The notes under the pieces: generated by a model | Told to the model about the DNA's origin: nothing | Seen by the model: only the letters and a program-made list of their open reading frames with translations | Databases searched by the model: none | Made by a program: the position numbers and the translations under genes | In this document: one piece after another, positions 1,824-64,000 of the stretch | How positions within the stretch are numbered: position 1 is the stretch's first letter | How the letters are laid out: each line of letters opens with the position of its first letter | From: Amoebophrya sp. A120 | Taxonomy: Eukaryota > Protista > Dinoflagellata | Assembly (NCBI GenBank): GCA_905178155.1 | Contig: CAJINV010000003.1 | Span: forward strand, 4,215,253-4,279,252 | Direction: 5' to 3' | DNA: 64,000 bases

Positions 1824-4800
1824 CTAGAGTGCAAGCCAGAAGTTTTCGCGGTCTTTCGGCCCTTCTTCTAGCAACACTTCCCCGTCGAGCGTGAGGATGC
1901 GACCCGCCATAGGGCGCCCCGCGAGCTGCTGCCTGGCGAGTTTCTCGAGAAAGTCGAACCCCACGTCCTGCAGCGGCAGGCAGTTCATCACCAGCAACCG
2001 GAGCCGCTTGATGTTTTGCTCGGTGAGAACGAAACTTTCGACCATCTCGTTCTCCGTCGCCTCGTCCTCTTCGTACCGAGTTAAGGAACCGAACAAACGG
2101 AACCCCTGTGCGACGCAGTCCACATCCTTGACGCCGTTCTTCTATCAACCAAAAAAATTTCGTCACGATCACTCATGCGTATTTTTGCAATACAAAATTT
2201 TTTGTCATGCGTAGAAACGCACCACCGCCAAACTTCATAAGGGATCTCCCTAGTAGTGGTTCTGCAATACAAGGAAAAGCTGTGATGCAAAAAAGTTTGT
2301 AATGCAAAGCCTGCAAGTTAGTGACTGCGAGTGCGACGAACTTTTTTCTTTCCATATCTCCTCGAGGAGAACCAACACCCATTCCACGAAGTTGATGCTC
2401 TGCTCGCGCTTTGCCTTGCCAAAAAGCAGGTCGCGGACGCTGGTGCAGAACAGCAGGTTGGCGAACGTCGACAGCAGCTCCAGGCACAAGTTGGAGCTCG
2501 TGGAGCAGTACTTCTTCCCGGCCTTCAGCAACGTCGCGATACCATTGTTCTCTTGGAGAACCGTCAACAAGCTGACTTCTAACACAGGCAACCCACCGGC
2601 CATGGCCATTACCTTCGTGTTTTTATTTTTTTTAGAGTGACTAGGACTACGATAATCTCCGCCAGTCCCAGTTCTAATTGGAGTAGAAATGCGCTACTGG
2701 TAGTGGTACTGACGGTATACCACAAATACAAAAAGAGCAGCACCCAACAACAGCCACAATGACAATACATCAAATTGCGCAAGCCCGAGTAATATCGTCG
2801 ACTCATCCGCATGATCTCCATCCACCGCAAATCAATGATGATCGGTGAAAAGTGGATTGTAAAAGCTAAATGTAAATTTCATCAAGATCAGATTGCAAAA
2901 AAATCACATAAAAGCAAATCAAATCTACCTTGACGCAGTTGGCCGCTTTGGCCTGCACGGAGACGCTGATCCGGTCTTCGTTTAGAATGCGCAGGGGGTG
3001 TTTCATCCCGGGTAGCAAGTACTGTCGCAGCACCGCGTTCTCGTGGCTCAATAAAGCCAGTGTCTCGAGACAGGGAACGACGACGCTCGGGCTCTGCATC
3101 GTGTCCTCGTCCACGAGGAAGTGGTCCAACATGTTTAGGAACGACTGCGCAATGGGTTTCTCGTACTCGTCGATATTCTCGCTGCCCTCGGCGAGCACGC
3201 GGAGGGTGTTCACCAGATACTCCCGGCTCTCCAGGTCGTTCTTCAGCAGTCCACCCATGGTCAGGAGCGTACGGAACACGTCGGAGAGGCTCGAGCCCAG
3301 TCGCTGGTCGTGCAACGCGCAGGCGTGGAAAATTTGCAGTGCGTGCTTCAGCACCGACTGGGAGTCGGGGTGCCGTTTCACGGTCAAAATCACCGACCGC
3401 AGCGCGTAGTGTGCGGTGTGCACGATCTGGTATCAAATGTAAAAATGTCTGAGTCTGGAAACTTGTGATGCTGGGTGGCGTATCATGAGGAGGCCACAAG
3501 TGCTCGCTCAGCATGACAAGTTTCTGAGCTTCTAGGTGTTGCCTATTCTGCATGCCAAACTGCGTTTCTACATGACAGAAAAGTGGCGCTCTTGGGCAAC
3601 GTGCATGACAGATTTAAGAGTCATGCCAGACAAGCATGACAAACGTGCATTCTTCCAGACCCAGACATTTTTACATTTGATATCTGGGCCTTGGAGACGA
3701 CGCACAGCAGCGCGATCACGCGCAGAGTCGACCCACACACCTTCCGGTTTTCGGGGGACAGGTCCAGCACCTGGCAGAGCAGCTCCAGTAAGGAGGAAGA
3801 CCGTCCGTGCAGCACGGCATTGCCTTTGTTTCGCGTCATGCGAATGTCCGCACCGTCGCGGGCGATTTTTCGCAAGTGCTTACTGTTTAAGGCAGCTCCT
3901 GCGGCCCCATCGGCGGAAGAACGACCACCGCCATGGTCACTGTCTCCCCCGGCATCTTCGTCTTCGTCCTCATTCCGAAATCCCCCCGACGCCGCGGCGA
4001 AATCAAACAGCCGCCCGCCAGGCACCGATGCCGAGCTGAAGAGCGCGGAGGGATCGTCGAGCAATAGATCGGCGTCTAGCTGGCCCTCGTCCACCAGCAA
4101 GAGGTTCCCGTCGATCGCGTAGTGCAGCCGATCCAACTGCTTCTTCTGGGTTATCGCAAGACAAAAGTGCTACAGTCACGCATTGTGTTGCAAGGCCGGC
4201 AAGACTTCAGTGACTACAACCTTTGTCATGCAAGAAATGCTTGCGGGCCTTGTCCGTTTCATATTACGTGTCTGCTCATTCCATACGAAAAATGTCTGCA
4301 ATGCACGTTTTTTTTTGTCATGGAGCGAAAGCTTGTTTGTGTTTTCTGAACTTACAACAAATGCGTGGTACCTGGAGCACTTTCTCTTTACATATGGATC
4401 GGCGGTCGCACACTGGGGCGCGCGGCCGTCGAGTGCGGCCCGCCATTTTCCTCGGTCTCCGCCCGGGCCGCCATCGTCGGCCGCAGCAGGAGCCGGTCGT
4501 TCCCGAGATGATTGATCGTCAGCTCGTAGATGTTCCCCAAAACCAGCAGAGCGCGCACGAGCAGGCGCGGGCTCGCTTTGAAGCGCAGCAGCGCCCGGAG
4601 GCAGTACGCGTGCTGTTCGAGGACGCGGTGCGCCGAGCGACACACCAGGAGAACCTCGAAGAGCGATTCGTAGGACGAAAGCGTGAGGAATCGCTGGCGC
4701 TCTTGACGCGCGTTTACCTGGTTTGCCCCGTCGTCGTCGGCAGCACCGGTTGCTTCCGCGAGGGTCGACGAAACCAGATTCAGTTCGCGGTGGTTGGCGG

Positions 4801-7800
4801 CGACGGACTTGTAGCGGGTCCAAAACTCCTCCTGACCGCGGCCACCTGGGCTGTTGTTCGCCGCGCCCGCTCCGCTGTCTATCGCCACAACCTCGTCGAG
4901 CAAGTTTCGGTATTGTTGTGTTTTTTTCCGCTTCGTGCGGTCTTCCGCCTCCAGCCGCCGTGCGATGCGTTCTTTTCCCTCGACGAGGTCCAGCGCAAAG
5001 TCGAGGTGGTCTTGTACAATCAAACACTCCGGGTGGATGCACTCGGCGAGTGCGTCCAACACTTTCCATTGCAACATTTCCTCCTCGATCCTCATGGGCA
5101 CGTGCAGAGAGTGGAAAACCGCCATTTGAAACTGGTGTCGGTGCTCGGGGACGGGAACCGACGAGTCCACGTGGACGCGGTTGGCCTGTTGCAGAAGCTG
5201 ATCGACTTCCTGGTCGAGGTCCTTGGCGGCCTTCTTCGCGTCTTTTTCCTCGACGTCCTCGTCGTGCAACGTGTACCCGGCGACGACGTGTCTCCCGTCT
5301 ACTCCCTGGAAGGGGCTCCCGCGCCCGGCCAGGTTCTGGTTCAGGTTTATGATCGGTTTTTGTCCGACCGCGGCGGCGAAGCCGAAATCCGCAGTCGCGA
5401 GATGCGTTTCCTTCTTCAGGTCCTTGTCTAACTTATCCGTTTCCCGAATGCGGGACATCCACGCGGCCGCCAGGGGAGAGGGGCTCCACTTCACCTGCAA
5501 TGCCTTCCGCATGGACTCCGAAAACCCCCCCGACGCAGTACGGCGAAACAGGAAGTGCAGTGGACGCGCACTGTAAAACTTATCCAGCTTCTGGGCCATG
5601 AAAGAGAAATCCTTTTCCACGTGCGCGGCCTTGTTGGACGTAACGCAGTGGCTCACGACGAGTCGATCACCGACCTGCAGTGCGTTCTTCGCGGCCCAAC
5701 AGTCGGCTCCTTCTATTTGTGTGATGCTACCTGCGGCCGGCGGCACGGGCGGCTTGTAGTCTTCCGGGTTCGGTAGAGACGCGGGACCCCCGCGTAGGTG
5801 GAGGTCTCTTTCTTTCTCTTGGTCCTCTTTTGTCAGCTCGTGCCCGTTCGCGATCTCGAAGCCCAGGTGGCCGGGCTCGGTGACCTCAACTTGAACGTAT
5901 TCGGAAAAATTCTCCTTGCGCAAAAACATAAAGTTGCAGGCCGGTGGCTGCGGGTGCTCCTGCGCGGCCTTGGGATCTTTTTTTTGTCGTTCGTGGTGCT
6001 CCTTCTGCTCGTGAATGACGCGCTCAATCAGCGCATCGTCGGGGTCGCGCCCGGGCCACTCGTGGATCTCCGAGATGGGGTGTCCGGCGAACAAAAGCAG
6101 GACGTCGCCCGGGACCAGTTTGAATTTGTACGCTTGCGTCTTCCCGACCCCTCGGGGCGTCAACTTCTCGGCGCGCAACAACCGCACGAGCGGGTACTCC
6201 TTCCAGTACAACTGAAAGCCAAAGAGGTGCAGAAATTTATCTCGGCTGCTGAGGTGTGGGTCGTGGAGCGCGTCCACGTCGAGATCCTTGGCTTCGACCT
6301 GCCAGCCCACCACCCCGGCTTCCTTCGGACTGAGGCCGCGGGCGAGCTGCGACAGCAGGTAGGGCTTCATTCGCGGTGGCGGTCCTTTCTTGCCCTCCTT
6401 CCCCTTCCCCTGGCCTTTGGGCGGCGGCTTCGCCGGTTCGGGGAAAAACAGCATCCGGTTCCAGGGGATGCGCTCGGGGTCGTAACTATCGCGCAACTCG
6501 TGGCGATGAAACAGATCCACCACCGCAGGGTCCTTGTGACCGGGGACCTTCTTCCCGACGTCCGGGTGCTCCCGCCAGGCCTGGGGCAGTTGCAGCGTAA
6601 AATCCTCCTGGTTCTTGTAGTGCTCCCGTGTGTATGGCTCTCCACGGCGAAACAGCACCGATAACGGCCGAGGGCCAGTGATGTCCATTTGGTGCTGGAG
6701 GGACGCTTCCAAGGCTTCTTCGGTCTGGTAAAGACCGCCCTTGTCCGGGGGGATGAATTCGCACAGCGTGCGGCCGATGGCGATCACGCGATCACCCTTT
6801 TTCAGTCCGCGTGATTCGGCCCAACCCTTCTTGGCCATTCTTCGAACGAAATACTTCTGGAAGTCCATCTCGAGGCCATGGTCAGGGCGGTCGATTTCGA
6901 GTTGCAAGTACTGGCTCTCGAACTTCAACCGCAGAAACCAGAAGTTGATTTTCTTCTTCGCTGTGACCTGCTTCACGCAGTGATTCACAATGGCCTCGTG
7001 CGGGTCCTGCCCCGGCCAACTAACCAGCTCCGTCACAGGGCGGTCGTTGATTTTCAGCAACAGGTCCCCCTTGCCGACCTTTGCCTTGAAAGCGCGCGAC
7101 GGCTTGGTCGGGTCCATCACGTCCTGCTCCACCACTTTCGTGACGCGAATCTGCGGGAACTTGGTGAAATCCAAGGCCATTCCGAACAGACTCGCCAACT
7201 TCTGCCGCCACGTGACCTTTTTGTCCTTGATCACCTTTGCGTTCAAACTACTCTGCGCCCACATCGCCAGGCCGAGCTTTGGTCCTTTCAAGCTGTCGGC
7301 CAACAGCAGTATCTGCATGTAGGGTGCGCCCTTTGGGTTCAGCAGTGCGTTTTTGACCATGCGGAGATCCTGTTTTGTGAACACCTTTTCCCGTTCCGCT
7401 TTCACCGCTATGTCCATGTGCTTCTGCTGCCGCATCAGGTTCAGAAGCGCATCGATTCCCCAGTAGTGCAGCCAGGGGTTCCGCGGGAAGCGGCGCAGGC
7501 AGTCCAACAATAACGTGATCAGCTGACTCGCTAGGGAGCCGTAGGGAAGCCGCGGTTCCCGTGCCAGGGCGATCGCGTACTCGAGGACCAACTGTGCCTG
7601 GCTCTGCATGTCTCGTCGCTTTTGCAGTGCCGCCTGCGACGGCGACGATCCAGGTTTTATCGCCGCGGCGGAGGCGGTCCCGAGTCTGCCGTCGTGCTGG
7701 AGCTGGAACAAGGTGGAGTACAGCTCCCCGATGGTGTAGCGGAATCGTTTGAACGACTGGAATTCCAGTGTTTCGTACACCGTGTCGAGGCTGCGCAACT

Positions 7801-10800
7801 TTTCCAGGACCTGGTGGAAGTCCAGGGCGTCCTCCTTGTCTGGCAGTAGCTCCAAATCAAAGTCCTCGATCAAACAGGCACCGAGGTCGGGCTCCAGGGG
7901 GCGCAAGTGCGGGAGCGGAATTCCGACCCACTGAATTTTCGGCGGAAGCTTCAGTTCTTTCGGGTGCTGAATTTGGAAGGCCGACTCTTCGTTGCGCTGC
8001 GCACCCAAATCCCGCTCACGCAGCTCCATCTGTATCCTCTGCAAGCGCTGGGCTCGTTCCTGGTCCGCTTTCGTGGAGCCGCCGAGAAAGATTGCAGGCG
8101 GTTTCACAACGCCTGGTGCACCCTGATCGTCAATGCGGACTCGGCCGGCTCCTGGACTACCACTTGCTTGATGTAGTCCCGGACTACCTGCAACGCTCAT
8201 TTTCGAAGCGGTTCCCGGAAGCCCCGCAACCGCAGCTTGGATCGCGCTCCCGGGCCGTGACCCTCCTGCACCTTGGTTGTTGACAGCGGCAACGACCATG
8301 CCCTGCTCATGGTCGAACTCCATCATGCCCGCGCTCGCAAGCAGCGGCGAAGTTGCTGCGTCCTTCAGGTGCTGGTCATAGTGCTCGAAGGTCGTACCTA
8401 GCAGGACCTGTCGCTCCTCCAGCTCCTCCATGTGCTGGTTGTGGGCGTGCTGCGCACACTGCTGCAACAGGTTGACAGGAGGGATTTCGCCCGCTTCAAT
8501 CGTCTCCAAAATGTCGATTTCGGGCGGCGGGACCCGGGGCCGCGCGGTTTGGTTCTCCAGAAGCTGATCGCGCACCGCATTCTGCTCGGAGGTCAGGTTG
8601 TCCGGATGAAAATCCTCCTTGTGGGCTAGCTTGTGTTGATCGCCGACCAATCGCTGCATAGCCGCGGTTTGTCGCGCCACCTCCGCCTCTGCCTCGTCGT
8701 CGGTCGAAGAGTCAAAGCAGGAGAAAACTCCTTTCGGCTTCGTCTTCTTTGGCTTTGGCGGCGGGGGTAAATCAGCCTGGTGGGGCTGGTGTTTGTGCGC
8801 AACACCTGTAGAAGTTGCCTGACCGGCCTGCCCGGCACCGCTGTAATGTTCTACTGTTCCATGACGTTCCTGTGCAAGAACATCATCCTCGGGGTAGAAC
8901 AGAAATTCCGCCCGCCCATCCTTCCTCGAATTTTTCACGTCCTCGATAGCAACCTCCAGCACTTCTGTGTCTCGCAACGGGACGCGACCGTGCTGCGCAC
9001 GCTCTGCCTTCAAACGCCGCATCTCCGCCTGCCCCGCGGCCTTCACGGTTTGTCGCAGCTGCAATTTGTCCTCTGGCGTCAGCTGAATCGCTTCCCCTGC
9101 GTGCTTGGTACCATCAGCGCCCAGGTCGCGTTTGCTGCGAAGCTTCATCAGTTCCTCGGCCGCCTCCTTTTTCATGAATTGGCGCACCCGCTCCTCGTCC
9201 TTCCGATCGTGAACGATGTCCTCCAGCCGGACTCGCTCCGCAGGATCCTCCAACTTTCTTTTCGCTAACTCCTCGAGTGTCGGGCCCTTTTTTTTCTTCT
9301 TTTCCTTTTCCTCGTCTTCCAAGTCTTTGCGCTTTTTCGTCTCCAGCGCGTCTGCATCCTCCGCCCCTTCGCTGGAAATATCGCTCGCATCCTCCCCCTC
9401 CAGCAAAGCCTCGCTCTTGGAACGGACAATCTTGCCGCTTCCTCCTGCGTCAAACATTGCCCCGGAGACGGACCCTCGTCGTCCCCCTGCTCCTGCTGCA
9501 GCGGCGGACTTCTGCTTCTGCTTCTTTTGCTTTTGCCTTCGTCTTGCCTCCGCAGCGGCGGTGATGCCGCGGTACTCCTGCAACCGCTGCTGGTCCGCCA
9601 CTGCCTCGTGTTCTCGTTGGTCCAGCAGGTATTCGTCATACAGAGGCTCCGCGTCGCGTGCAAAGTGGTTTTCGCGAATGCTGTCCACCATGCCGCCGCC
9701 ACCCTCGACCACGATCTCCTCCTTTCCACTGGCGTCCCAGGCTTTCACCCGCTCCACAATACCGTACTGCGAGGCGACGGCTTCCCCGCTTTGGGCCGCG
9801 CTATCGTTCCAAGACTGGGGAAGATAACTCTTTCCCTGCGGGCTTCGTCCACGACCCGCTCCGGGCGTCATGGGCGACATGCCTCCATCTCGCGCGCCGG
9901 CAGCGGAGGAGCGGGAATCGCGGACGACGCATCTTGCTCGCAGAACCGCGTCGGATCCAAAGGCCTGCACCAGCCGTTTTGACTTACGCGACCAGATGGG
10001 CTGAACGGCATGAACCTTGCCCGACAACTCCCCATTTCGCACCCGGATACTCACCTGTGCCAGCGGGTCGGTTTCGTCGAAGGTCGTACGTCGGCTGTGC
10101 AGCGTTTTCCCTCGGCTGCCGGTTGGCCGCTGCTCGTCCGGGGAAACAGAGGACCCATCCGCCGCTTTTTCGTAGAAAACGATGTGGAACCACAGTACGT
10201 CGTTCGGGTCCGCACACTTCTTCTTGTCTAGTGGAAAGAACAACCGGCGGTAGAACGGCACCAGCGAGGGATCGAAGCTGGAACTGATAGTCGCAAACCG
10301 GCGCTCCGAAATGACGGCCTCGCGTTGACCCGCGTCAAGGGGCTCCCCACGCAGGTAGTGGCGCCAGGCGGTCGGATCTCCGGCCGTATCGGTGCACACA
10401 CGCAGTGACGCCGCAACGTCGGTAAGCTTCAGCCTGAAAAGGTTCGCAATCTTCTCCAGTGCGTGCACATCGACGTCAACCTGTGGACCAAGATCCCCCC
10501 GTGAATGTTCGCCAGCACCAGTTACTGCAGCACCTGCCGCCGACCCCAAGAAGCTTATCGCATTTGCCTGCAAGTCTGTGTTTCCACGGCTTTCATGATC
10601 CCTGCTTCTACTCAAGGGAGAATTCATCGCGATGGCTTGGTTTCGAATCTCCTGGCGCTCCGCTTTCATCGCGTTCGCGTTGATCAGTATCGGCGTCGGA
10701 TCCGCGTCCTGGTCTAGCTTTTCCTGCCAGCCTGCCTTCTCCGCGCGCTTCGGGATCTGCAGCTCCCCCGTGGTCGGGTCCACCGGGACCACGACGACAT

Positions 10801-13800
10801 CCTCCGGGTCTACTTCTACCCCAGTGTCGTCTTCGTCCTGCGGCTCGTCCTCATCTCCGCCGCCGCCGCCCGCCCCGCCGGCAGCCGGGATCGCGTACAT
10901 GGATTCGTAGTACTGGTTTCGGCTGTGCCTCTCCGCGTAAAACTGCGCCTGCTGTTCGTCCCGGACCTGCTCTTGCAGTTCCGCCTTGTAGCGCTCTTGC
11001 TCCATGCGCTTCTGCTCCTGATCGGCGATCATGTCCCGCTCATTTTGCGTGATGAAGTTGGCATCCAGCAGTTGCTGCGCCGTCATCTCGTTCAGCGCTT
11101 GGGTCACTTTGCGGCTCAGCTCCCCGGTGACGGATTGCAGACGCTCGCCCTGCGACCGGAGGTGCATGAAGGTGATGTCTAGTCCGTCTTTTTGCGTCAG
11201 CGAGTTGATGCTGGGAGGAATCGGCCGGCGATGCCGCTCCTCTGCTGCGAGTCGCGCAGCAGCTTCATCTCCGTCTGGATCGTCTGGCGCTGCGTTATTT
11301 CCACCAAATTGGTCGAATTGCATTCCCGGCACCTCGCCCGCGGCTCCGGAGAGGGGAAGAGTGGTGTTCGCAATTGAATTCGCCGCGCCAGATGCGGCGT
11401 TTGATGTTCCACCGTGGTCACCAGCCGTCTGGTACATTGGGGCATTGATGGTCGTGGCCGGCACGGTGTACCGCATCAGCTCCTGGAACCGCGCCAAAGC
11501 GTTACGGGACTGACACACAGTCTTGTACCGTTCCTGCAGTAGTGCGAGCTGTTCCTGTGCCTTCGTAGGGTCGTACAACTTCGGTTCCTGCAGCAGTGTC
11601 GCTAGCTCCGGTGCGGCGTCGGCGGCACTCGCGGATCGAGCCATGATACCGCCTCGCTGTTCGAGCGTCTGTAGATAGGAGGTGACGTACAACTGGCTCG
11701 CTTGCTCCTCCCGCAAGCGCATCTGCCCGGAAACAGTGGAGGAGGAAATCTTCGTGTCTTTCTTCACACTACTTTCGTCCTGACTCGCTCCGGTGAAGGG
11801 CTGAACAGGCATGCCCAAGGAGGGATGTTCTGCGGCCAGATTTTGGCGGAGTTGGCCTTGCATGCGTCGAGACGGATCGACTGCCTCTGCCACGTAGCGC
11901 TGCATGTCCGATACGTTCTGCATGCGTAGCAGCTGGTCTGCGGTGTACAGATCGTCAACGGACCGGACGTTGTCGTAGCCTGCCATAATTGCGTTCACAT
12001 CGTAGTATTGACCAACCTGAAAGCCCCCCGCCGCGCCAGCAGCGGGAGCCAATCCTGGTTGCTGCGCCCCCGCTGCCCCCACCTGCTGCTGCGGAGCCAA
12101 CGACTTGGCCGCGGCGATCGACGCAGCTGCGGTGGCGTTTGGCAGGTCGAAGTTTGTTTCTTGTTGCGACTGGTTATTCACAAACTTCCCCGTGGCGGTC
12201 TGCCCGCCACCGGTAGCTGAAGAGCCCGCCGCTGCTCCGTGTGGCCCTTGGGCAGGGCCTCCATCGAGGCTATCCACCATGGGCGGCACAGTTTTCCGCT
12301 TTTCCAGTGCGGCCTTCCAGTTCGACGGCAAACTTCGAAGCACGCTTTGCACCGCGGGGGATGTCAGTGCTGCACTGTCGAAACCGCCTCCGCCGCGCCG
12401 GCGTACCAGCAGACTGAGCGGTCGATGACCCTTGGAAGACAAGAGCGGCGCTAGTTCCTCTGGTTTGTGCTTCCGCGGGGGCTTGTCGTTGATGATCAAC
12501 AGTTGGTCTTTTGCCTTCAAGTGGCACTTCGCTCCAAACGTGCCGGATTTGGGATCTTCCTTTATTTCGCCCGTGCTGCCGCTGATTTTCAGTCCGAGGC
12601 TGATGTCGTTCGTGGTCAGGTGCACTTGAATGAACTCGTTTTCGAATTCCGACCGGAGAAACATGAACATGACCTTCTGGTACTTTTTCACCTTTCTGGC
12701 GAGGAAATTCAGCACCGCCGACTCGACGCTGCTACCTTCCATTTTGGGAATCGAGGTCGTTCGCTCGCCCCCCAAAACCAGCAACCGGTCACCAACTTTC
12801 AAACCGCGCGTAACGGCCTCACTTTTTGCTCCCCGGGCACGCGGCGTGGTTGGATGCACACGAACAACACGAAGGTTCGGGAAGGTCGCCCAATCCAGCT
12901 CAAAGCCAAACAGGAGCAGAATTTTCTCCGCCGAGCTCGTCGAAGAAGACATTTTCGAGACCTTCCCGACCAACTCCTCGGCGTCTGGCATCTTCTGCTC
13001 GTAGTACAACAGCGCGCTGCTCATGCTGTCCGCTGACTGCGTGGCTCCAAAAACGGACAAGAGAAATGGTGCGTCCGCTCCGCTGGCCGCGGCCGAAACC
13101 TTCTCGCCCCCGCCAGCAGGAGTAGTTGATGACGATGCACCAACCGCGCGAGAAGCGGTTGCGCTTGGAGGTGACGAGGAGCCTCCTTTGCCTTTATTCA
13201 AAGGCGCGTACACCTTGGCCCAGTGCGTCGCAATGTCGGTGGTGTTGCTGTGCTGGTTTTCCAACAAGTGTGCCGAAAACGCGGCGTGTGGCCGATGCAC
13301 AAAGAAATTCCGGCTGGTTTTCAGCAGCTCGACGATTTGCGAATCTTCCCGTCCGGTGCAGAATTTGTCGCCCGCAACCAAGAGCTCGTCACCGTCTTCG
13401 ATTTGTAGCCCCGAGGGATGCAGGTGTACGCCGTGGAAGGCGGACGTCTTCAGCATCGTTTTCTTGCCGTCCGGACCCTTGTGAAACATGCTTGCGAAAT
13501 CCGCGTTCTTGTCCAGAATTTCCACATTTAGGTAGTTCTCCGCCTTCTTCTTCCGGTGGAACACGAAGCCCCAGGAGGTCTGACTCGGGTCATTGTTTTT
13601 CTCCTTCACCTTTTGCCGCAACTTCCCGAGCAGCGCAGCGTCAGGGCTCTGGGGAACCGGGTCGCTCGACGACTTCGGAACGAAGCGGACCACGTCCGTG
13701 ATGACATACACGTCCGCTATGGTGGCCACCATGTCCCCCACCACGAGGCCGGCCTTGGCCGCTCGCGTGTCCTTGTCCACGGCGGTGAGCGCCACGCGAG

Positions 13801-14413: not shown

Positions 14414-15508
14414 AGCTACAAACTGGTCGCCAAGAAAATTTCGGTGTCAGTCGGTCGCTCGAGGGGGTGCATGTGGCAGCACACACTCCGCCAAACGGCG
14501 GCCACCGCCAGCGGATTTAAAAATTCCACCAGCTGCTGAGAATGATGTACTGAATGTTCTGCGAAACGACCTCACCGACCCATCCTCGGTTAAATAAAGT
14601 TCCATGTCGGTCTGAATGGGAGAGATAATCATTGAAGTCAGAAAGAAGACGAAGATGCCCATTGCATTTGCAGGGTCGTTCCTCCGATTCGTCCAAAAAC
14701 AAAACACACTTTTTCGCTCACGAAAATCGCATTTTGAAGCCTACTCGCTTCTCAGATGAACACTTCTCTCTCGACAAGGCGACACTCAAATTGTCTTGTC
14801 CTCTGCAAGCAAGTTCCCTCGTCAACAGACAGTACAAACTTCACTAGGCACAACGGTAAATAGCATTCCCAACGGGTGTAGGCAGCGTACACCCGTGCAG
14901 GAGAATTAGAAGCGAAAAGGTTCCCCTTCAAGAAAAAACGCCGAAAAAAAATGGAAAACGATCGGCATCATGATCGAACACAGCGCTGCGCGACGTGGTG
15001 TTCCTCCTGTTGGTTAGTCTGCGTTGACCACGACATTCCGGACTCCATTCTCAACAACGAACAAAAAGTAAAAGCGAAATCCTCAACACTGTCCATACGA
15101 AACGATCCGGGAAATTCCGCGACATGTTGACACTCACGTCACTGCTTCTCCGGGAGCAGCATGATAGTTGTCACTCTGGCTACTGTAGAAGTGTAAGGAT
15201 GAAGTCACAGTCAGTGTCAACAAGTTAGAACGAACATTCTTCTCAAAGGTAGCAAAACAGTACAGATAAACGTCATATGCAGCTGCAGCTCGTCAGCCTA
15301 CATATATGCAAGAGAGTAGTGTAGCTGAATCGGTAAAAAATCTAGGTCTAGGTTACGAAGCAGTCGCAGATCGATGAAAAACATCCCGGGAGAGGGGGAA
15401 ATCAAATACAAATTCCCCGTTTTATACATCAAAGCCAAAACGAAAAGGGAAAGAATTACGGACTGCTAATGCTCTACACATGCTAACTGTACGATCGGTA
15501 GATCAGCT

Positions 15509-28717: not shown

Positions 28718-28830
28718 ATGCAAAATTACGTGGTTCAAATAAAGAACAATTTGTTTCCAAAAATTGATGCAAACTTACGTGGTTTAAAAGAGCAATTAAT
28801 ATGCAAAATTACGTGGCTAAAAAGAACAAT
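28718..28830. repeat. Three imperfect direct repeats ATGCAAA(A/C)TTACGTGG...AAAGA(A/G)CAAT
   Basis: Copies start at 28718, 28767 and 28801 in AT-rich intergenic DNA. Confidence 0.8.
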
Positions 28831-35130: not shown

Positions 35131-37830
35131 TCAGCCGTCAGAAAATTCATCCTCCTCCGCCGGTTCTTCGGCGAAAATGTCTTCGTCTGCAGCGTCGCCA
35201 TCTCCTGGCACCCCCTCGTCGGCGTCGTCGCTGTTCTCTAACGTTGGTGATACAACGAAGTTCAACTCACCACATTCGTGCTGCAGCGGCAGCGTAAAGA
35301 TCAGCGGGTACTCCCGACTGAGAAATATCAGCACGGTCTCGGCAACAGGGAGCCCCGAACCAACCATGATGATCGATTCTGTCGTAAGGAGAATTTTGGT
35401 TACTTCATTTTCGCCACTAAAAAATGTAAAAAAAATAGTTTCAACTTTTTGGCTCATAAAATCCACAAAACACTGAATGACACGACAGAACCTGAGGAAA
35501 ATAAAAAAGACATGCTGATGGTTGGATATGTACCATTTCTGAAGCGGCATTTCTCTTTGCTGTCGAAACCCTCTTTCCTGTTAAGGAATACTTGGTCTTG
35601 ATTAGGTATTTCGAGCTGCTGCTCTAACGTTCCAGCAACGATGAAGTCCACACTCATGCCACCGGTTGCGTTCTCGGAGCCAAACCGTATCATGTCCACT
35701 GGTTTCGATATTACAGTGAAAAGTGCCCCCCACCCCTGAAATTGCAAATATTTGTGATGCGCAGTTTCCAAATGAAAACTTTTTGTCATGCATGAAAGGA
35801 GTATGAATCTTTCTGATGCAGAGTCTAGTCGTGTTTCGCATCGCTTGCATGACAAGCACCGCTCTTCCTGGGATCTTTTGCAATACAAATTTTTGCTATT
35901 CACGATCGGAAATCTGTGATGCTGATACATGCAAGAGGGCGAATGTTTCATTTGGAAAGGTTTGCAATACAAATACTTTCAAGTTCGGGGGTGGGGGCAT
36001 TTTTCATTCTGATATTCGAAGTGCCGTCTTTCATGTCCGTGAAGTCCTCAGTGGGGCACTTATTGTGAGGAAAAATCCCCTCTCCCCATAAATATCCAAA
36101 ACGAAATTTGTGTTGCTGTATTTGAGGCGTGAGGCGGCAATGATCACACTTAGGGGAGGTGGAGCGGTCAGTTGCTGTATTTGAGTACACAAATCGATTT
36201 GTATTGCTAGAAGGCCAAGAGACGAAGCTGCTCCCTCGTTTGCAGGCAATTGGTCATGCTGTTTTCGGTTTCCAGTTGCTTTCTGTCATGCAGAAGGCGC
36301 AAGGCTTTCCTACGCCAGCCAGCACTACAATCCGCATCTCTTCCCTTCTAGCATGACAACGTGATTTGTGGCCACAAATCATGCTACACAAATCTCTCTT
36401 TCGGTATGGAGAGGGGGGATTTTTCATTTTGATAACACTGGACGTAAACCTTCGACTTTTTCTGGTCGGCTGTTGTGCAAGTTTTGCATTTAATCATCCA
36501 TGATCTGGGTGAGGATTTGACCTATCCGAAAAAAAATGAAAAAGAAGAACGCAAAGTAGCGGCTGGCCCAACAAAATTCTCCCTGGTGCTGGTCATTCAA
36601 CATCAACACTTTTGCTTTTCGTACAAATAAGAACATCAGGATCTCACGGTTCGCTAGTTCGTGCAAGGTGTCTTGGACATATCGGAAGCTTGCGACCGGC
36701 ATCTGGAGCCTTGTCGCGTCGTCTTTCTTGGGCGGTATTTCGAGCGCTGACTCGTTCCCGACTGGTAGTATCCTAATTTTGAATTCGTTCAGCTTGAAAC
36801 CGCTGCTTGCCTCTTGCTTTTTCTTGCTCTTCGGCGCTCCTGCCGCACCGTTTGCTTCGTTGGCAGCGTCGATTCCCTCTTGTATTCTTTCTCCCCGTGG
36901 ATCTAGCAGCGCAATCGACAGCGTTTCGCGGTCGACTTCCGTATCATACAGCAGATAGATTATCTGATACAGTAAACGCAATGGTTGTGTAATTGTGGCA
37001 GGCTTTCGTTTTTTGTTTTCACTTTACTTTCCATGATGAGAATGTCTAGCTATGTGCAACAAACATCGACCAAAATCGTCTCTACTAAACAAAAACATAC
37101 GATACACAAAGAAAGTCAGGGACATCACAAAACATAGAAAAATGGTACATCTCTTGTCTTGCAGATCTTGAGCACTTTGTTGATAAGCTGCAAGTCGACA
37201 GAGAAAGTGAATTCGCCGCTTTCCTCACCTTCCGCGGGCTTGTTTGTGGTCTCCACATCGTACAGGTCGAAAGCCTTGTCGGCTTCCAGCGACCATTGCA
37301 CGAGCGACACCTGTGGTAAAGCAAGTAGATCAAGCCGTGTAAATTCATGGCCAACTTTCAATCATCCATCTGTCCATCGCATCTATGTCTATGATTTCCT
37401 GAGTCTCCAGCGCAACATCGCACATTGTGCAATCTTGAAAATAGCAGTGAATGGTATGCTCGGCCTCGGCCTCAGACGCTGTGTGGGAATGAGAGCAAAC
37501 ATGAAGGCGCCCGAGCCCGACCCCGACAACACGGTTAAAAACGGGCATAGTATCTTATCACTCTCTTCATCACAGCAAATCCAATGCACTTACGTGGTTT
37601 GCATCTATCCCGATGTAACTCAGCCGTTTTTTTGTTACTTTCAGGGTGAGTTTTTGAACGTCGGAGTCGTTTTTCTTGTCTTGTATGCTCTGTGCGCAAT
37701 TCACAAGCGTCTTGAAGAGGAACTGGTCCTTGAATTTGCACTCAAACCGGTGCTTTACTTCTTCTTCTTCGTCCTCGTCGCCATCCTCCTGCTGTTCTTG
37801 CTTGATGAGAACATCGCCCTCGTCGGCCAT
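35131..37830 (-). CDS. PCNA: Divergent PCNA-family sliding clamp (~410 aa), 7 exons
   Basis: Exons 37830-37594, 37310-37149, 36963-36648, 36469-36435, 36055-36015, 35703-35534, 35402-35131 (1233 nt). GIDANHVSLVQ ~ SMDSSHVSLVQ; VDLQLINKVLKICKTRDII ~ VNLTSMSKILKCAGNEDII; LQMPVASF ~ VKMPSGEF; LPVAETVLIFLSREYPL...LNFVVSPTLE ~ TPLSSTVTLSMSADVPL...LKYYLAPKIE. The last acceptor is the least certain. Confidence 0.82.
35709..36014. mobile_element. Introner D: TAT...ATA MITE-like element acting as a non-canonical intron in the PCNA-like gene
   Basis: ~70-bp imperfect TIRs (35709-35778 / 35946-36014). Perfect TSD TTCGA 35704-35708 / 36015-36019. Removing 311 nt gives MKDGTS-KPVDMIRF in frame. Confidence 0.92.
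36061..36434. mobile_element. Introner E: TAT...ATA MITE-like element acting as a non-canonical intron in the PCNA-like gene
   Basis: 30-bp imperfect TIRs 36061-36090 / 36405-36434. TSD gcact 36056-36060 / acact 36435-36439. Removing 379 nt gives SKVYVQC-PTEDF in frame. Confidence 0.88.
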
Positions 37831-55567: not shown

Positions 55568-58500
55568 CTAGAGCAATGTGACGGTCTGCTCGTCTAAAGG
55601 TTCAACGACGGCTGAAGTGAGAGTGACCACTGCAGGAGGCTGCGGATTATCTTGTGGTGGTGGAACTTCTACAACTACAGCCGCAGCGCTTCCTGTTGGT
55701 GGCGCAGCAGCAGGTTTGATGTCCCCTTCCGTCGGTTCTTCGTCCAACCTTGTTACTGTGAATCCCCGCTTGGGACGCGCGGGCTCGCCGTCTTGCTCCT
55801 CTGTAAACTTGGTTACTGTCATGCCGCGCTTAAAGGTAAGCGGCAGGGGCGCCTGCTGCGCGGGTGGGGCTCCTTCGGCTTCCGCCGCGTCCCGCAAGTC
55901 ACCAGTCTTGCTGTCCGTGTCCCGAGCCGCCCCGGAGGACGGCTCGTCGGTACTTTCCGCACCGTCCTCGTCGCACAGTTTCATGTGGAGCAAATCTTCG
56001 TCGATGATCGTGAGTTCCACAACTGACCCGTCCTTCGTCGGCTCTCCGCCCTTGATGGTTTTCCCGACCCCGGGTCGGGGTGTCCACTCCCGCCCCGGCT
56101 CCGGTAGGGGTTGCGGGATAATCTGCTGCGCACGAGATAAACGCGCACCTGCGGCGTCGTCTTTCGCCGGGGGGCTTTCGTCCTCTGCGTCTGGAGGCGG
56201 GTCGAAACCGAGCATCTTCATTTGGCGGATGTACCAGCGGCCGACGACGTTTTCGTACTCGGTATCCACGTAGTAGGCGTCGACCACGCCGAACGGCTTG
56301 GTCAGCTTCTGCCACATGGTCAAAAAGGCCGCCACCATGCCGATGTACCCGATGTAGGCGCCGACGAAGGCGAGGAAGTTCTTCAGCTCCAAAATGGGAA
56401 TCTCCTGGAACCGCTGGCTGCCCGGGTCGATCTGGAAGAGCAGGCGGACGCTGCAGGACGAACGCATCGTGTAGTCCGCGTCCGCGTAGTTGATGTCCAG
56501 CGAGGAGATGCTGGTCGCCCAGCGGTCCAGCACAATGCCGCCTTGCCACTTGTCCACCACGTAGATCGGGTTCACCTGCCACACTAAGTTGATCTGCACG
56601 ATGCTCATCGGTTTGATCGCGATGAACCCGTCCTCGGCGGACCCGAGGGTGCGCAGCCCCGAGTGCAGATCTAGGTTGAGGTTGTCCAGCTGCGCGAGCA
56701 GGCTCTCCAGTTTCTCGCCCGAGTCGTGCGCCGGCCAGTACTTGGGCTCGATCTGCTCCAGCAGCGCCTTCGTGCGCTTGTGGTTCACGTTGATCCTCAC
56801 CCCGGGTAGCAACATCGGGGGGTTGGCCGGGATGCCCTGCGCGCACCCGCGAATCTTGTTCGTGCAAATCGCCCGGCCCCGCGCGAGGGGCTCCGCGGCC
56901 CACAGTCGCGGCTCGTTGTTCACGTAATCGCCGCCCTCCGCCATGTACTCTTTCTCGACTTCGAGGAATTTTTTGTCGAACGTCAGGTAGTACGTGGCCT
57001 CCAAATCCACGTTCCATTCCGGTAACGTGGCGGAGTAAGACTCGTCGGCCCTTTCCTTGGGCAAGAGCCACTGCCCCGTCAGCGGCCCCGCGATCTCGAA
57101 CAGCATGTGGTGGCCGGGGAGGAAGTCCTTGGAGCAGAACATGCGGTACTTGTCTCTGCTGTCGGTTCTCAGTTCCGCCTGGGATTTGCAGTGCTGGAAG
57201 GCCTGCGTGTCGCTAAACTGCTTGACCGTGCAATTCTGGACGGAAAAGTTGTCCTCCAGCGTGATCCCCCACTTCCCCCAGAACTGCTTGAAAATGCCGC
57301 GGCCCGGGCTGTTCGCGAAGGCGTTCGTCAAAAATTCGCCGTCAATGGCCTGGCTCGGACAGAGGTCTGCGTACGGGGTGCGCTTGGGCATCACGAACAC
57401 GGCCATGTGTGCGTCCAGGGACTCGGGGGAGCGGTAGGTCTCCGTGGTGGTGGACCCGTGCCGGTTTTTGGGGAGGTACACCGAGCTGGGATCGCGAAAG
57501 AGGTTCACCTTGGAAATGGACTGCACCACAAACGAGATCACTTTCTTGTCGGTTTGGCTCGAGGATGTGGACGAGGCGAACAGGGACAGAGCGTCCTCCA
57601 AGTTCAGTGCGCTCTTCGTGCCGCCCTGGGAAGCGAAGTCGTAAAACCCGAGCTCTTCGAGCTGGGCCTCGTTCAGGAAGGCCCTTGCGCACACCGGAAC
57701 CATTCCAATGACGGCATTCGGCGGCCACTGGGTGGAATCCGTCCAGTTTGCGGCCACTGGACACAACGTCAAATTCGCGGCAGAAGCTGTTAGCGATCGA
57801 AGGTTTTTGGGCCCGTCTGCATTTTCGTCTAGTACTTCGTCTTCGGTGAGCAAGTACGGAAAATAAACCTGCTCATCTCCCACCATCGTGGGAACCCATT
57901 TGGTGTTTGTGCTACGTGCCTCCTCCTCCGCCCCAGCCCCGCTCTGATGTCCTCCTGCTTCGTCATTCGAAAAAATCATAGAATTTTTATCCCGTGCGAG
58001 TTGCAGTTCTTCGCTTGCTGGATCAAGAAGCATGCTGCGGTACTCTCGCTGCAGCATTTTTATTTCGAGTTCCCTTCGCTTGCGCAGCGAAAGTTCTCGG
58101 TTATTCCGGTCCACGTGGTCACCAGAACTACTGATCTCCTCGCTAACTTCGTCGTCCAGCAGCCGAAGGCGTTCGTTACCGCGATTCGCCTGCTCTCGAC
58201 GGAGCGCCAGCACCTCGGCTCGCGTACGAGCTCGGCTTGTTTCGTAATCGGGAACCTCGTTATAATGGAGCGCGGCGTACACATCTTCATCTGCACCGTT
58301 GAGAGTTCCTCGTAGTCTACGGTTCCGACGATAGAGCTGCTGATATTCTGTACTGCTGTAAACGCGCTGATAAAGACTTTCGGCCAGCACCAGAGCATCA
58401 CTGCTCGTCTCGGTGAGTTGGGAACTGTCTGGGCCGCTTGTCTTGAGGTCCACTTTGGTAAACTCCGCCGCCATCCAGGGAAATTTCTCAACCATGCGCG

Positions 58501-61500
58501 AATGTAGGTCCCGCTTTTCAGTTGACGTCAATCGACGGGGCGTGGCTTGCTCAATCAATTCCTGTACGACAAGGCCAGCGGGATTCACCGCTTCTATATC
58601 TATTGTGTTTACCGATTTCTTCTCGTCCTTCCTCCTCATCTGTGCAGCAGGAGGTTGTGCGAGCTGACGTCGCAGATCGATCTTCTCCTTAACGTATTCC
58701 GGCGGGGTTCCAGTATCAAGCTCTTTGAGCTCAACTTTCCACTGTGGTATGCTAGTGCCGTCGCGGGTGTCGGCCCACTGCTGCACCCTTTGTATCGTGG
58801 CCTGTGCGATGTTGCCTCTCTCGTCTTCGAGCTTTTGCATCAATCGGTTTGCCGCGGGAGTGCTGTTGTCTTCGTCCGGTCGAAAGCGAAACGTTATGAG
58901 AATGATTTTCTCATTATCTGGGGGCGTGCCGCCATCATCCTGGTACTGCAAATCGTCTATCTGGGATTCCGTGATCTCCGCCCAGTTCTGAAACGGACGG
59001 AGCATAGCCGCCTTGAAGAGTTGCGTCTGCCTTATGGTTACGATTGCCACGTTTGCCGGTTGCGCTGCTCCGCCTCTTAGTCGCCACTGGTACGTGGCTT
59101 TCACGGCCATGTAAAAATTTGCTGCACCTGCGCCGCCACCGGCGGGAGCAGGGGTCGGATCCGGACCGGCTGGAGCAGGGGTCGGATCGGGCTTCCCCGC
59201 GTCTGGAGCAGGAGTAGGATCGGGCTTCCCCGCGTCCGGACCGGCTGGCGCAGGAGTCGGATCGGGTTTCCCCGCGTCTGGACCGGCTGGAGAGGGGTTT
59301 GGATTGGGTTTCCCCGCGTCGGGACCGGCGGGAGAGGGGTTCGGATCGGGTTTTCCCGCGTCCGGATTGGCGGCAGGAGATTCGGGCTCACGGTCCGTGC
59401 CGGCCGCCGGACGAACCGGGCGTTGAGTTGGGTCGGCATAGTCGTAGCCAGGCTTCATCGCGTTGGGGTCGCTGTAATCCGGATAAAGGTTGGCCGGATC
59501 GTCCTTGTAGTCGGTCCCTGGCATCTGTGGGTCCGCAACGCCGGGGAACGGCAGCGGCATGTTGTTGTACCCACCAGCCGGCATTAATGCACCAACCTGC
59601 GGTCGGGGCATTTCCACTTCCGGTTCCTTCAGCTTGCCCATTTCGAGCAGGGAAACTTTAATCGTCTCCACTTTGTCAAAACCCTTCTTTAACCTCTTCT
59701 GCACCTCATCCGGGTTATTCGTCATAGCTTTCGTCATCTTCTTGGCCATTTCTTCCGCGTCTTCTTGCGAATCTTGGACAACCTCCATAATGAATTCCAC
59801 CTTCATCTCCATGCTTCCCGAGAGCTGCCGCTGAGCCGAAGATGGATCGTTAATCTCGAAAATTTTTTCAGATGTTGGAGCCGCGTGAAGTAGATGTGAT
59901 CCAGCAACACTCTTTTGTTCCTCCTCGTCGAGAGAACGTCGTTGCCGTGCCGGGACCACATTGATGCCGGTGACCGTAACCTGATGCGGTGGAATTCCCA
60001 TGGTAGCCGCGAGGGAGCTCTGAAACGCGGGCACAAACTCCGGATCTTGCATCAGCTGCGCGCCCGTGGTCCCCGCAGGCAGTTTCATTTTCATTCCCAA
60101 CGCGGTCTTTATCACCGGGCTCGTGTGTACGATGGCTCCGCTCGCCGTCGTGATCTTGCCGCCCCCGCAGAAGGGCGGCGGATTGTCCACGAGACATGCT
60201 TGATCGATACCACCTCCCGCCTGCGTTTCCCGATCCCCCTCTTGCTCCTCGACGCTCTCCTGCATCAAACTGGTGTCCACGTAGGCGGAGGCGGTCGCCA
60301 GCGACGCGGACTGGAAGGCCGCCGCCGTCACCTCGGAGACCCCCAGCGTTTCCACCAGCGTCCCCACCGGTCGGTCCGTAACCAACGGGCAATCGAGCTC
60401 GATCACCTCCCAGAGGTACCGCATGTACGTCGGGGCCTGCAACCGCGTGCCGTTGAAGGAAGCGGACTGGTACATGTTCTCGCGGACCGACGTCGGAAGC
60501 CCGGTGGCAAAGTCGCAGTACCCGTATTTGGCCGGCTGCGCCTTGATCTGCCCACAAGTCGGGGGCAGCTCCCCCTCCGGGAGTTCGGGGACCTTCACGA
60601 CCACGTTGTTTCCCTTCGGGCAATTGATGTTCACGGACACAGTGGACGTCGGGTCGTCCAGCCGCTCCTCCACGTACAGCTGCGGAATACCGCGGTCGCC
60701 CATGCAGTCCCAATCCGGACGCCCGCAGTTGCAGTCGCAGATGCCGTCCGCCCACTGCTCGGGCTGGCAGATCCACGGCGTGACGCGGTCGTCCCCGAGG
60801 GTCCCGGTCGTCGGGTCGATCGAAGGAAACAGCCACTGGTACGCCTTCTTGATCTTGCGCACCTCCATGGGCGCGGTGGAAGAGGCGTCGTTGGCGCTGC
60901 CGCGCACGAGGAGCCGCATGTTCGAGTTTGGAGGGACCAACTGCTCGTTGGAAAACCCCGCCGCATTCACGACAAGCAGCCCGTCGTGGAGTCCGTCGCA
61001 AAAGATGGACGTCCTTCCCCTATACTCGACGCCGTCCGGGCCTACACCGGGAGACCCAGTGGCGGTGGACCAGTCGCACCACGGTTTTTCGGCCTGCACC
61101 GCTTGGAATTCCGAGAGGGTGGTGAAGTCCGCTTTTGCCGGGGTCTGGTCGTTGTTCTCGTTGAAACTGGGAAATCCAGCGGGCGTGTAGGCGAGGTCCT
61201 TGATCTCGGCGATTCGCGGGTGCGTCGCGAGCGCCGGCTTGAAGTACGTGTCCAAAAATTTCTCGCGCTTTTGCGCGGCCAACGCGAGTGCGCGACCGGA
61301 AGCATGCCGCTGGAGATCAATGACAAGGCGAATAGTATGTTCCGGCGAAGCGGATGTCAACTCTCGTGGCTTGTTCGGGTTGCCTCCCGGATTTGCTGGT
61401 GGCGGCATCCCGCCCAAGCCCGGTGGCATCCCTGGTATTTTCATCTTACCTGCAGCCATGTCGGCCTGACTAACGGAAACCATCTGGCCCGTGAGAGGAT

Positions 61501-64000
61501 CGTATATTTCTTGCACCCCAAAACCACCGGAGTCCGCGAAAGCTTGCACGGTCAAATCAGTCGGCGGCACCGCTGGAGAAACCCCCAGTTCAGCGCTGGC
61601 GTCCGAAAACGCCTGTTGTACCGTCTGCACGAAACTGGGATGCCCAACAAACTCCGCCGGCGAAACGTCTGCCGGAGTCAGTGTCAGTAGCACCTGCAAT
61701 TCACAGCTAAAATCGTACGCCATGGTGATGGTACTTGTTTCGGAGAGCCGGCGGGCTCCAAGATGTTGGTCGGTGCTCGAAGAGAATGATGCAGTGGCAG
61801 GGCTGCTGGACTTTTTGCTCAACAGCCGCGTTGCAGCCTCGGCCTGCTCCTCCTCGTCTAGCAGCTCCTCCTCGGAGTCGACCTCATCCACGTGCCCCGG
61901 ACCAGGCGTGTACAGCAGCTTTCTTCGCCGTTCTTCGCGCCGGAGCTGCCGGCGAGTTACCGGCTCTAGTGCCGCAACCTCCAAAACTCGGAAATGCTCA
62001 GTGTCGTCCACCAAGGGATTCTTCGGGTGCTGACTTGATACGTCATCGTACTCATTACCGTTCAGCAGGTTCCGGATTTCCGTGTTTTGTCGCAGCGCTT
62101 TTGAAATCGCCGTCCTAAACGTCATTGTGGGAAACGAGTTTGGCGGGAGGACCGCATCTACGAAGTTCGGCAACGAGTACCACTTGCGGAGCGTGAAGCG
62201 AATTTCGAGGTTGGCTGCCCGCTTCGAGAGATCTTCGGTGTAGGTGAGCGCCGGATTGGGGTTTCCGCCTACCGTGAAAGGGACGGTGCTGAGCTGAACC
62301 TCCGCAACATCCGGACTCGTCACGCCCGCCGCATTCGGCATGCCGAAGGCGTTCGCCAGGCCCTCTGCGAGGGCCTCCTTGACCCCATTCACCTGCATCA
62401 GACCGATGTTTTGGGGCGTGCCGCCTCCGGTGCCGCCGACTTGCACGCCGTCGTTGACCGTCCAAGCCTGATTCGGATCCAGTTGTCCACTCGCACCGTT
62501 CCACGTGGAAGCTGGAGGCGTCTGCAGGTACAGAAACATGCGATACGTCTTTTGCGTCACCCTGCAAGCCGTGGTGTACGGGGTCTGGTAGAAATCCGTG
62601 AAGCAGTTCGTTGCACCAGGGATACTGTTCGACGAGGAGTCCGCGAAGTACAAATTTCTCGCCGGTTCCGTCGCCGCGGCCGCCATCTCCTGGTTTGGAT
62701 AGAAGTACCGGTAAAGCGACACATCCTCCGACGGTACGTTTGCCGTGTACTGTCTCGACAGAATACCCCGAACACCAGCGGATTTTAGCCCCACGGGGTA
62801 GTTGTTCACGTCCAAGCGCTGCCGCTTCGGCGACGCCCGCGCGCACGACTGCACTGTGCTCACACTCAAAGTCGTCAGACCGAGGTTTTCCACAGCCTCG
62901 TCCGTCGCATTGCTCGAGTTTGTGCTGTTGTCCTCATCGCTAGAGGATAAAAACCGTCGCTGAAACAAATTCTGTTCTACTTGGGCCGCCGCTGGCGCTT
63001 GTAAAGTAGAGTACCACGAGGACGATAACCCCAACGTCGCATCCTCCTCCCCCGTACCAAAGCCTGGCTCCGAATCGTCAAGTGGGGGAAGTCCGAGTCT
63101 TTCCCGCTTGATCTCCAGCAGCTGCCGCCTGCTCGAGCCAGCCGAAGAGGAGCTGCTCGACGAACTGGTCGAAGAGTCTTCGCTGCTCTCCGCCTTCACG
63201 TTCGATCCCGTACGGATCACGATCTCGGAACTGTCTATCTGGATTCGGTAGGGCCCCGTGTTAGAAAACGGCTTAGTGTCGTCGTCCAACTGCATCACCA
63301 TGTCGGCGTAATCTCCAGTCATGCTACTGGCCATCTGCCCGGTCGCGTGGTGCTTGTAGCGAAACGCGAGACCGTTCGCCATGATGTGCAGCACCTGCGT
63401 CTTCTTCTCTGCGTTCACCTTCTCCGACTTGATCGCAGTTACCAGCTCGTGGATGCCCATGCCCTGGTCCAGCTCCACGGTGAAGTTGCTCTCGTTTAGG
63501 GCTTTCACGGGGAAGCCGGCCTTCGGCCCTAAGCTGGCCTTCACAATCCGGTAGCGGTCGATGATGGAAGCAATGGTGGCGTTGCCGGAGGAACCGTAGG
63601 TCTGAATGGTCGTCGGGTCCAGCGCCATGACTTCACTAGCCGGAATGTCGCCGTCCGGCCGGTATTGACAAACGTACTCGTTCTTCTCGTTTCGGTTCGT
63701 CCGTCCGGAGTACAGCTCGTCGTACGGGCAGACCTGGCACTGGTTGCCGTTGGCCGCGTATCCTCTGCAAAAGTATCGTATTCGTAAGGCAATCATGCAT
63801 TACAAATCTTTTCATTAAGTCAAATCCGCATTACAAATTTTATTTCTCATGCTGAGAAAATTTGTAATGCATTTATACGATTACGATACTTTTGCAGTTC
63901 ATACCGCGCGAAACTCCGTGGCGTGGCCAAAGTACCCGTGCAGAATGACGTCGCCGGGCATGTTCATGCGCTCGCACGGCTCGGACACCGCCACCTCGGA
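55568..64000 (-). CDS. Giant (>2750 aa, 5' end outside window) membrane-anchored surface protein
   Basis: 2742-aa ORF plus an upstream exon (64000-63904, SEVAVSEPC...HATEFRA) joined through introner F. WADGICDCNCGRPDWDC Cys motif, SEA-like segments, Pro-rich repeats, and one TM FLAFVGAYIGYIGMVAAFLTMW followed by an acidic tail. Confidence 0.8.
59140..59375 (-). repeat. Coding tandem repeat, ~42-bp unit (PAGPDAGKPDP(T/N)P(A/S))
   Basis: About 5-6 imperfect copies of GPDAGKP(D/N)PxP in the giant ORF. Confidence 0.85.
63759..63903. mobile_element. Introner F: TAT...ATA MITE-like element acting as a non-canonical intron
   Basis: 28-bp TIRs 63759-63786 / 63876-63903 (24/28). Perfect TSD CCGCG 63754-63758 / 63904-63908. 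Removing 150 nt gives HATEFRA-ANGNQCQVC and removes an in-frame TGA. Confidence 0.92.

Follow-up and report, generated by a model that had tools for sequence, protein, structure and literature searches.

The DNA analyzed here is a stretch of 64 kb (the window) that contains six short elements, designated A to F, which resemble the introners of Amoebophrya and carry several internal copies of a 9-bp motif. The motif was counted on both strands as GCAWNACAA/TTGTNWTGC (strict form) or with either A or G as ninth base (relaxed form). The elements themselves were found without the motif, by TA-type ends (any TA allowed), an inverted repeat and a 5-bp duplication, and this motif-blind search recovered the six elements of the original prediction, with lengths summing to exactly 1,534 bp. 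They are listed below by position (no strand is assigned to A–F; plus and minus signs give the orientation of a motif site), together with two GT-AG introns that serve as controls.

2143..2356: element A, 214 bp, TAT...ATA, 5-bp duplication with 1 mismatch; strict sites 2187+, 2202-, 2264+ and 2297-, relaxed site 2280-; 219 nt skipped in contigs of runs X3 and X6
2610..2925, minus strand: control GT-AG intron of the gene that contains A and B, located between the two; motif-free
3431..3682: element B, 252 bp, 30-bp inverted repeat, exact 5-bp duplication; strict sites 3463-, 3511+ and 3634+, relaxed site 3603+ (31 bp before 3634); 257 nt skipped in X3 and X6
4152..4394: element C, 243 bp, 5-bp duplication with 1 mismatch; strict sites 4156+, 4183- and 4223-; 248 nt skipped in X3 and X6
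35709..36014: element D, 306 bp, exact 5-bp duplication; strict sites 35752- and 35783- (31 apart), 35847+ and 35880+ (33 apart), and 35964+, relaxed site 35914-; 311 nt skipped in X6
36061..36434: element E, 374 bp, 5-bp duplication with 1 mismatch; strict sites 36108-, 36199- and 36351+, relaxed site 36283-; 379 nt skipped in X6
36470..36647, minus strand: control GT-AG intron adjoining E in the same transcript; motif-free
63759..63903: element F, 145 bp, exact 5-bp duplication; strict sites 63797+ and 63828+ (31 apart), and 63862-; when F is excised along with one copy of its duplication, the minus-strand frame stays open

The inverted repeat TAT-N7-AAAA-R-T is common to the window elements, and the rule TAT, N7, A-tract is satisfied by 11 of their 12 ends (the left end of C has one extra base). 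The 5-bp duplication is exact in three of the six. When the six interiors are compared, they share at most 16–19 bp.

Motif frequency in the window

The six elements contain 21 strict matches, against an expectation of 0.37 and a maximum of 3 in 2,000 dinucleotide shuffles of the elements. Across the whole window there are 26 strict matches (mean 4.90 and maximum 13 in 100 dinucleotide shuffles). The five matches outside the elements (23474, 31707, 37154, 46903 and 50241), four of which have the low-complexity form GCAAAACAA, represent the chance level for these 62,466 bp. Nine GT-AG introns (1,889 bp), taken from the contig joints listed and thus not every canonical intron of the window, contain neither strict nor relaxed sites, where about 26 would be expected at the rate of the elements and about 0.1 by chance. 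The motif is thus much rarer in these introns and in the DNA outside the elements than within them, and its absence from GT-AG introns, noted before by eye, holds for these nine. A direct check gave an exact match at each of the 20 positions first reported. A 21st site at 4156, in the left inverted repeat of C, had been missed and the earlier expectation of about 0.1 was too low, but the conclusion of enrichment stands.

Removal of the elements from RNA

Five of the six elements (A–E) are introns that lack GT-AG ends. In contigs of runs whose RNA status is presumed (guessed), X3 and X6 included, the skipped length equals the element plus 5 nt for A–E, and GT-AG introns are skipped by the same contigs. 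The skips of D and E come from X6, with X3 and X5 having no coverage of that gene, and run X1 has no element-skipping joint among the joints listed. Numerous X1 contigs stack on D and E, which are repeated in the genome. No sliding of the A–E joints gives a GT-AG reading. Element C as a GT-AG intron was ruled out by the skip of 248 nt in the contigs (element plus 5).

The duplication copies of A, C and E (window 2138–2361, 4147–4399 and 36056–36439) differ by one base. The contig joints retain the second base of the upstream copy in A and C and the fifth base of the downstream copy in E; in these three cases, a common 5' cut would lie 1–3 nt ahead of TAT. In run X9 (RNA, raw reads), 95 reads match only the inverted repeat of B (window 3651–3684) and then run into another motif-bearing locus, which means that one or more such elements remain in the RNA of that run or occur there as DNA.

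Generality of the motif in held-out elements

A held-out set was obtained with the end of B as bait, which gave 134 stretches, of which 130 loci of one assembly (457,471 non-redundant bases) were kept. Four viral loci and two loci from other assemblies (L095, L126) were excluded before any count. The held-out 457 kb belong to another assembly, whose relation to the genome of the window is not established, and the bait favors the class of elements to which B belongs. Elements up to 600 bp were called by TAT...ATA ends, end similarity and a 5-bp duplication, without the motif, by a finder that made 1–4 false calls in shuffled loci. All six window elements have relatives among the 332 held-out elements, full-length for five of them.

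The motif is general within the sampled loci. It occurs in its strict form in 321 of the 332 elements (9.7 per kb) and in its relaxed form in 328, compared to nine strict matches in 68,664 bp of coding cores (0.13 per kb). Outside the class of the bait, 116 of 120 elements of a first, stricter set carry it. Among families, it is found in 40 out of 43. A few family pairs have 15–153 bp of interior in common. The most frequent 8-mer over the family representatives, determined without any prior, is GCATGACA (34/43), followed by GCATCACA (25/43), and the refined consensus reads GCATSACAR, the ninth base being A or G. The best model from random seeds is a looser near-palindrome with a likelihood nearly equal to that of the asymmetric motif; the asymmetric form is reported here.

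The rule TAT, N7, A-tract fits 266 of the 332 elements, while the tract is absent at one or both ends in the other 66. A further 19 motif clusters lay beyond the first calls; 11 of these turned out to have TAT...ATA ends, a 5-bp duplication and an inverted repeat of another type, with no A-tract. The view that the motif unites divergent families is thus borne out by both the family count and the classes whose inverted repeats lack the A-tract. The terminal inverted repeats had been described as differing between elements; those of the window are not unrelated to each other.

The 5-bp duplication is exact in 272 of the 332 elements (the finder selected on 5 bp), with no sequence preference in the five duplicated bases. 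The frame is continuous in 227 of the 332 cases when the element is excised with 5 nt, compared to 98–122 when 3, 4, 6 or 7 nt go with it, and 10 of 204 elements could be read as GT-AG. Element lengths in loci L001–L132 cluster at about 150, 210, 252–262, 280 and 305–325 bp; these are family sizes in a sample biased to the class of B.

Strand and geometry of the sites

Gene direction was called from reading frames, not from RNA, for 251 of the 332 elements, and the calls were consistent in 58 of 60 loci with several calls. Strict sites are sense in 289 and antisense in 324 cases (P 0.17); for relaxed sites the numbers are 422 and 488 (P 0.03), sites not being independent of each other. Antisense-only elements number 59 of 251 for strict sites and 39 for relaxed sites. 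One family of 29 members has its sites all in one direction (0.1 vs 3.7 per copy), and its copies are oriented 10 with and 12 against the gene, nine of them having no sense site at all.

The sites keep a fixed distance from both ends on either strand, so that the subterminal placement in both orientations, first noticed in the window, extends to the held-out elements. Only five site centers lie less than 35 bp from an element end, with peaks at 36–37 and 44–50 bp. A profile site (at least 8 bits) located 33–62 bp inward is found at both ends of 284 elements, at one end of 43 and at neither end of five, whereas the same test on shuffles gives 0, 19 and 313, respectively; the profile was trained on the same 332 elements on which it was scored. 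Pairs of sites in the same direction peak at 31–32 bp, which would correspond to approximately three helical turns. Such a pair at 31–33 bp is present in 16 of the 31 families with two or more sites (null mean 3.4, maximum 10 in 5,000 runs); this bin was picked after viewing the data, and every other 3-bp bin reaches at most seven families. The spacers of these pairs are 31% alike (10 families contributing) vs 0.25 for other pairs, and the pairs are therefore not recent tandem copies.

Conservation of the sites

Changes in the nine largest families were assigned to tree branches by parsimony. The cores of the motif have 37 changes on internal and 227 on terminal branches (0.0046 and 0.028 per site and copy), compared to 1,423 and 2,830 in the other interior columns (0.0376 and 0.075) and to rates of 0.0173 and 0.056 in the inverted repeats. 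On internal branches the cores thus evolve about 8-fold more slowly than neighboring columns, which holds in each of the nine families. The terminal to internal ratio is 6.1 for motif cores vs 2.0 for other columns and 3.2 (2.5–4.1) for rate-matched columns, with lineages not sampled and errors of assembly also falling on terminal branches. On these branches, the motif rate is near the mismatch rate between duplication copies (0.036), a rough clock that is truncated by the finder. By the same clock, relaxed sites are fewer in copies with a mismatched duplication (12.8 vs 15.3 per kb, P 0.005). Protection on internal branches together with decay on terminal ones indicates that sites are kept in the lineages that multiply and lost in settled copies, as expected of a mobilization signal.

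Elements without the motif and long elements

The motif is not universal. The relaxed form is missing in four of the 332 elements (L008:8317-8446, L034:1404-1789, L057:2287-2743 and L077:3933-4139). A long element, L072:6255-9194, has 2,940 bp, a perfect 43-bp inverted repeat and an exact duplication, and is non-coding. It holds internal inverted blocks and a different repeated word, CCCATCCA, and shares its ends with a motif-bearing family of 108–112 bp (L060:1884-1991, L017:1008-1119). Weak profile sites lie near the usual positions in both this element and L034:1404-1789. Excision restores the frame in the 2,940-bp element as well as in those of L034 and L057 (judged from frames, not RNA), and the motif is probably not needed for removal from RNA.

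Four other elements of 496–1,045 bp (L021:3862-4492, L032:5001-5972, L072:3176-4220 and L033:8952-9447) have normal family ends and a nearly unique interior, which possibly represents captured DNA or repeat expansion. None of the long elements of the loci has a coding interior, and no long TAT...ATA element with a duplication is present within the window.

Relation to known systems

According to the text of Farhat et al. (2021; PMC7789003), the introners of Amoebophrya A120 have inverted repeats of TAT, seven variable bases and three or more A, direct repeats of 3–5 nt (5 bp in the legend of Fig. S19) and a length of about 240 nt, and are split into 1,954 families. The window elements are similar in being non-canonical introns with TAT-N7-A-tract ends and short direct repeats that are repeated in the genome, and by these features they match the published A120-type introners. 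The closest named relative of the Dus protein encoded in the window is from Amoebophrya sp. A25 (57% identical). Unlike the situation here, the text of that paper, as distinct from its figures (logos, Fig. S25), mentions no internal motif common to families. The element class is thus already published, whereas neither the common internal motif nor its geometry or pattern of conservation turned up in the literature searched, figures and some supplement files excepted.

The best lead to the mobilizing protein is A120 introner family 38, for which the available text gives a length of about 810 bp, five copies, inverted repeats, a 5-bp duplication and TA/TA termini, labeled as terminal inverted repeat (TIR) DNA, Ginger, with frames that have Copia/Gypsy integrase-like homology (Gozashti et al., 2025; PMC12130899). 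Inverted repeats, 5-bp duplication and TA/TA ends are like those of the elements here, the length is not. IS3EU and GingerRoot elements are described, in the portions covered, with TA...TA termini (fungal TAYGG...CCRTA), no target preference, an integrase-like DDE transposase fitting short duplications, and duplications of 6 bp (IS3EU) or 6–8 bp (GingerRoot) (PMC10045372, PMC12730594, PMC6839031). The elements of this study also have TA...TA termini (the loci finder required TAT), and several families show TAYGG...CCRTA. They differ in the duplication, an exact 6-bp copy occurring in 0/332 elements against 272/332 with exact 5 bp (a finder selection), and in their motif, a subterminal motif not being mentioned in the GingerRoot text that was covered. 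Ginger2/TDD elements differ by TG...CA termini instead of TAT...ATA. A 5-bp target duplication, as seen here, is attributed to hAT5 in the part of the text covered (PMC12730594). The TA...TA ends may point to IS3EU/GingerRoot and the 5-bp duplication to hAT5, both being candidate affiliations.

Transposase binding to subterminal motifs is described for Emigrant/Lemi1 (PMC1636448) and for Hermes, a hAT element (PMC10368747). In the text covered, these systems likewise have short motifs that recur inside the inverted repeats, in either orientation; the transposase binds them, and the complex depends on them. In those cases a single family carries the motif and its protein is known, whereas here the motif extends over about 40 families that differ in their inverted repeats and whose members are introns. 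Of the features of such subterminal repeats, a fixed distance inside both ends, both orientations and conservation in spreading lineages are found here.

A putative DNA site for mobilization

The motif is quite probably a double-stranded DNA site needed for mobilization, likely bound by a protein that mobilizes the elements in trans. A DNA site is indicated by the absence of a transcript-strand preference, the fixed distance from both ends, the pairs at 31–33 bp and the protection mainly on internal branches, from which we infer the binding protein. The double-stranded site of the original prediction is supported on these four counts, while one protein for all sites, and its being a transposase, are postulated. 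In the proposed mechanism, a transposase or a partner would dock on the first site, 36–50 bp from each end, and often on a second site 31–33 bp further in, about three helical turns away. The docking protein would most likely be of the integrase-like IS3EU/GingerRoot-type group. If only copies with intact sites are copied again, spreading lineages would keep their sites, and copies settled as introns would gradually lose them. Excision from RNA would depend on the paired ends rather than on the motif.

Such a site bears on the origin of the tens of thousands of non-canonical introns in Amoebophrya and on the means by which they move. One conserved and positioned motif over many families argues for a single mobilizing system. 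The motif could serve as a bait for the mobilizing protein and as a sensitive marker of introners with decayed ends, and a separation of the spreading signal from the splicing signal would direct work on splicing to the paired ends.

Several observations weigh against a mobilization site. The 2,940-bp element, the only long young element observed, and the 386-bp element L034:1404-1789 (repeat 25/25) both look recent and have no relaxed match. The age test is not significant for the strict motif (P 0.11), and rate matching halves the contrast between terminal and internal branches. Even on terminal branches, motif cores evolve 2.7-fold more slowly than other sites, so that some selection may act once an element is inserted, and a role at that stage could be masked by the redundancy of the sites. 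A general 10.5-bp periodicity was sought and not found, with no peaks at 21, 42 or 52 bp. In the loci, 225 strict matches (0.77 per kb) remain outside called elements, 165 of them clustered; we take these as presumably missed elements. Finally, no transposase or integrase domain is present in 18 frames of the window and 148 of 398 frames of the loci (at least 150 residues), nor is a hAT transposase domain, although the DNA covered amounts to less than 0.6 Mb, too little to count as absence. The text of Farhat et al. (2021; PMC7789003) reports no transposase in A120 and rules out general mobilization by transposases.

Some of these points would suit a host DNA-binding or architectural protein that bends a short element so that its ends meet, or marks the element on DNA for transcript cutting, with redundant sites of which single losses are tolerated. 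We regard this as unlikely, though with a real chance. Strand indifference and spacing suit any DNA binder, at least one relaxed site is kept in 328 of the 332 elements, the cores are slower on terminal branches too, the 2,940-bp element, for which no bending is required, has no sites, and the lack of a reported transposase in A120, as given in the text above, fits as well. On the other side, the chance-level frequency in the 62,466 bp outside the window elements means that the motif is not a general host site, the protection is strongest on internal branches, and the frame is restored on excision of the site-less elements L072:6255-9194, L034:1404-1789 and L057:2287-2743 (as judged from reading frames). 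It is somewhat less likely still that a single protein bound to these DNA sites serves both to spread the elements and to tag them on the chromosome for removal from nascent RNA. If true, double-stranded DNA rather than splice-site sequence would define an intron, and this would account for the removal, in either orientation and with no detectable U1, of tens of thousands of introns whose boundaries are random.

Descent of all families from one ancestral element with internal repeats, the sites being functionless now, is very unlikely. The TAT ends and 5-bp duplication common to the families, the few family pairs with shared interior and the slightly more alike spacers of the 31–33 bp pairs (0.31 vs 0.25) would agree with it, but it is contradicted by the column-wise conservation, with cores 8 times slower than their neighbors on internal branches, and slower than the inverted repeats, in 9/9 families, as well as by the short stretches shared between the window interiors.

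We give even less credence to the motif as a single-stranded RNA signal, bound by a splicing factor that stands in for the missing recognition by U1 or of the branch point. Removal without GT-AG ends, together with the statement in the text of PMC7789003 that U1 was not found in these Amoebophrya genomes, requires some new signal, and one or more sense copies of the motif are present in every one of the six window elements. The splicing-factor alternative of the original prediction is nevertheless not supported as an RNA site, given the lack of a sense bias, the antisense-only elements (direction from reading frames) and the nine copies of the one-direction family without a sense site. The least probable alternative, pairing of inverted motif copies that extends an RNA hairpin joining the intron ends, agrees with predicted folds of 249 elements (motif bases 77% paired vs 60% for other interior bases, 37% pairing with another motif), but pairing requires complementarity rather than one fixed sequence over about 40 families, the 29-member family has same-direction copies only, the main spacing signal lies between same-direction copies, and compensatory changes are absent while the fixed sequence is retained.

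Other features of the window

No Rfam families were found in the window. A G+C-rich tandem array at 19105–20591 is intergenic and consists of 16.2 copies of a 92-bp unit with 99% matches, and an A+T-rich 49-bp repeat with the core TGCAAA-TTACGTGG is present in about 2–3 copies at 28707–28808. Two single open frames on the minus strand are uninterrupted by introns: one of 3,352 residues at 4388–14446, with several weak PDZ matches, and one of 2,743 residues at 55568–63799, with no Pfam match.

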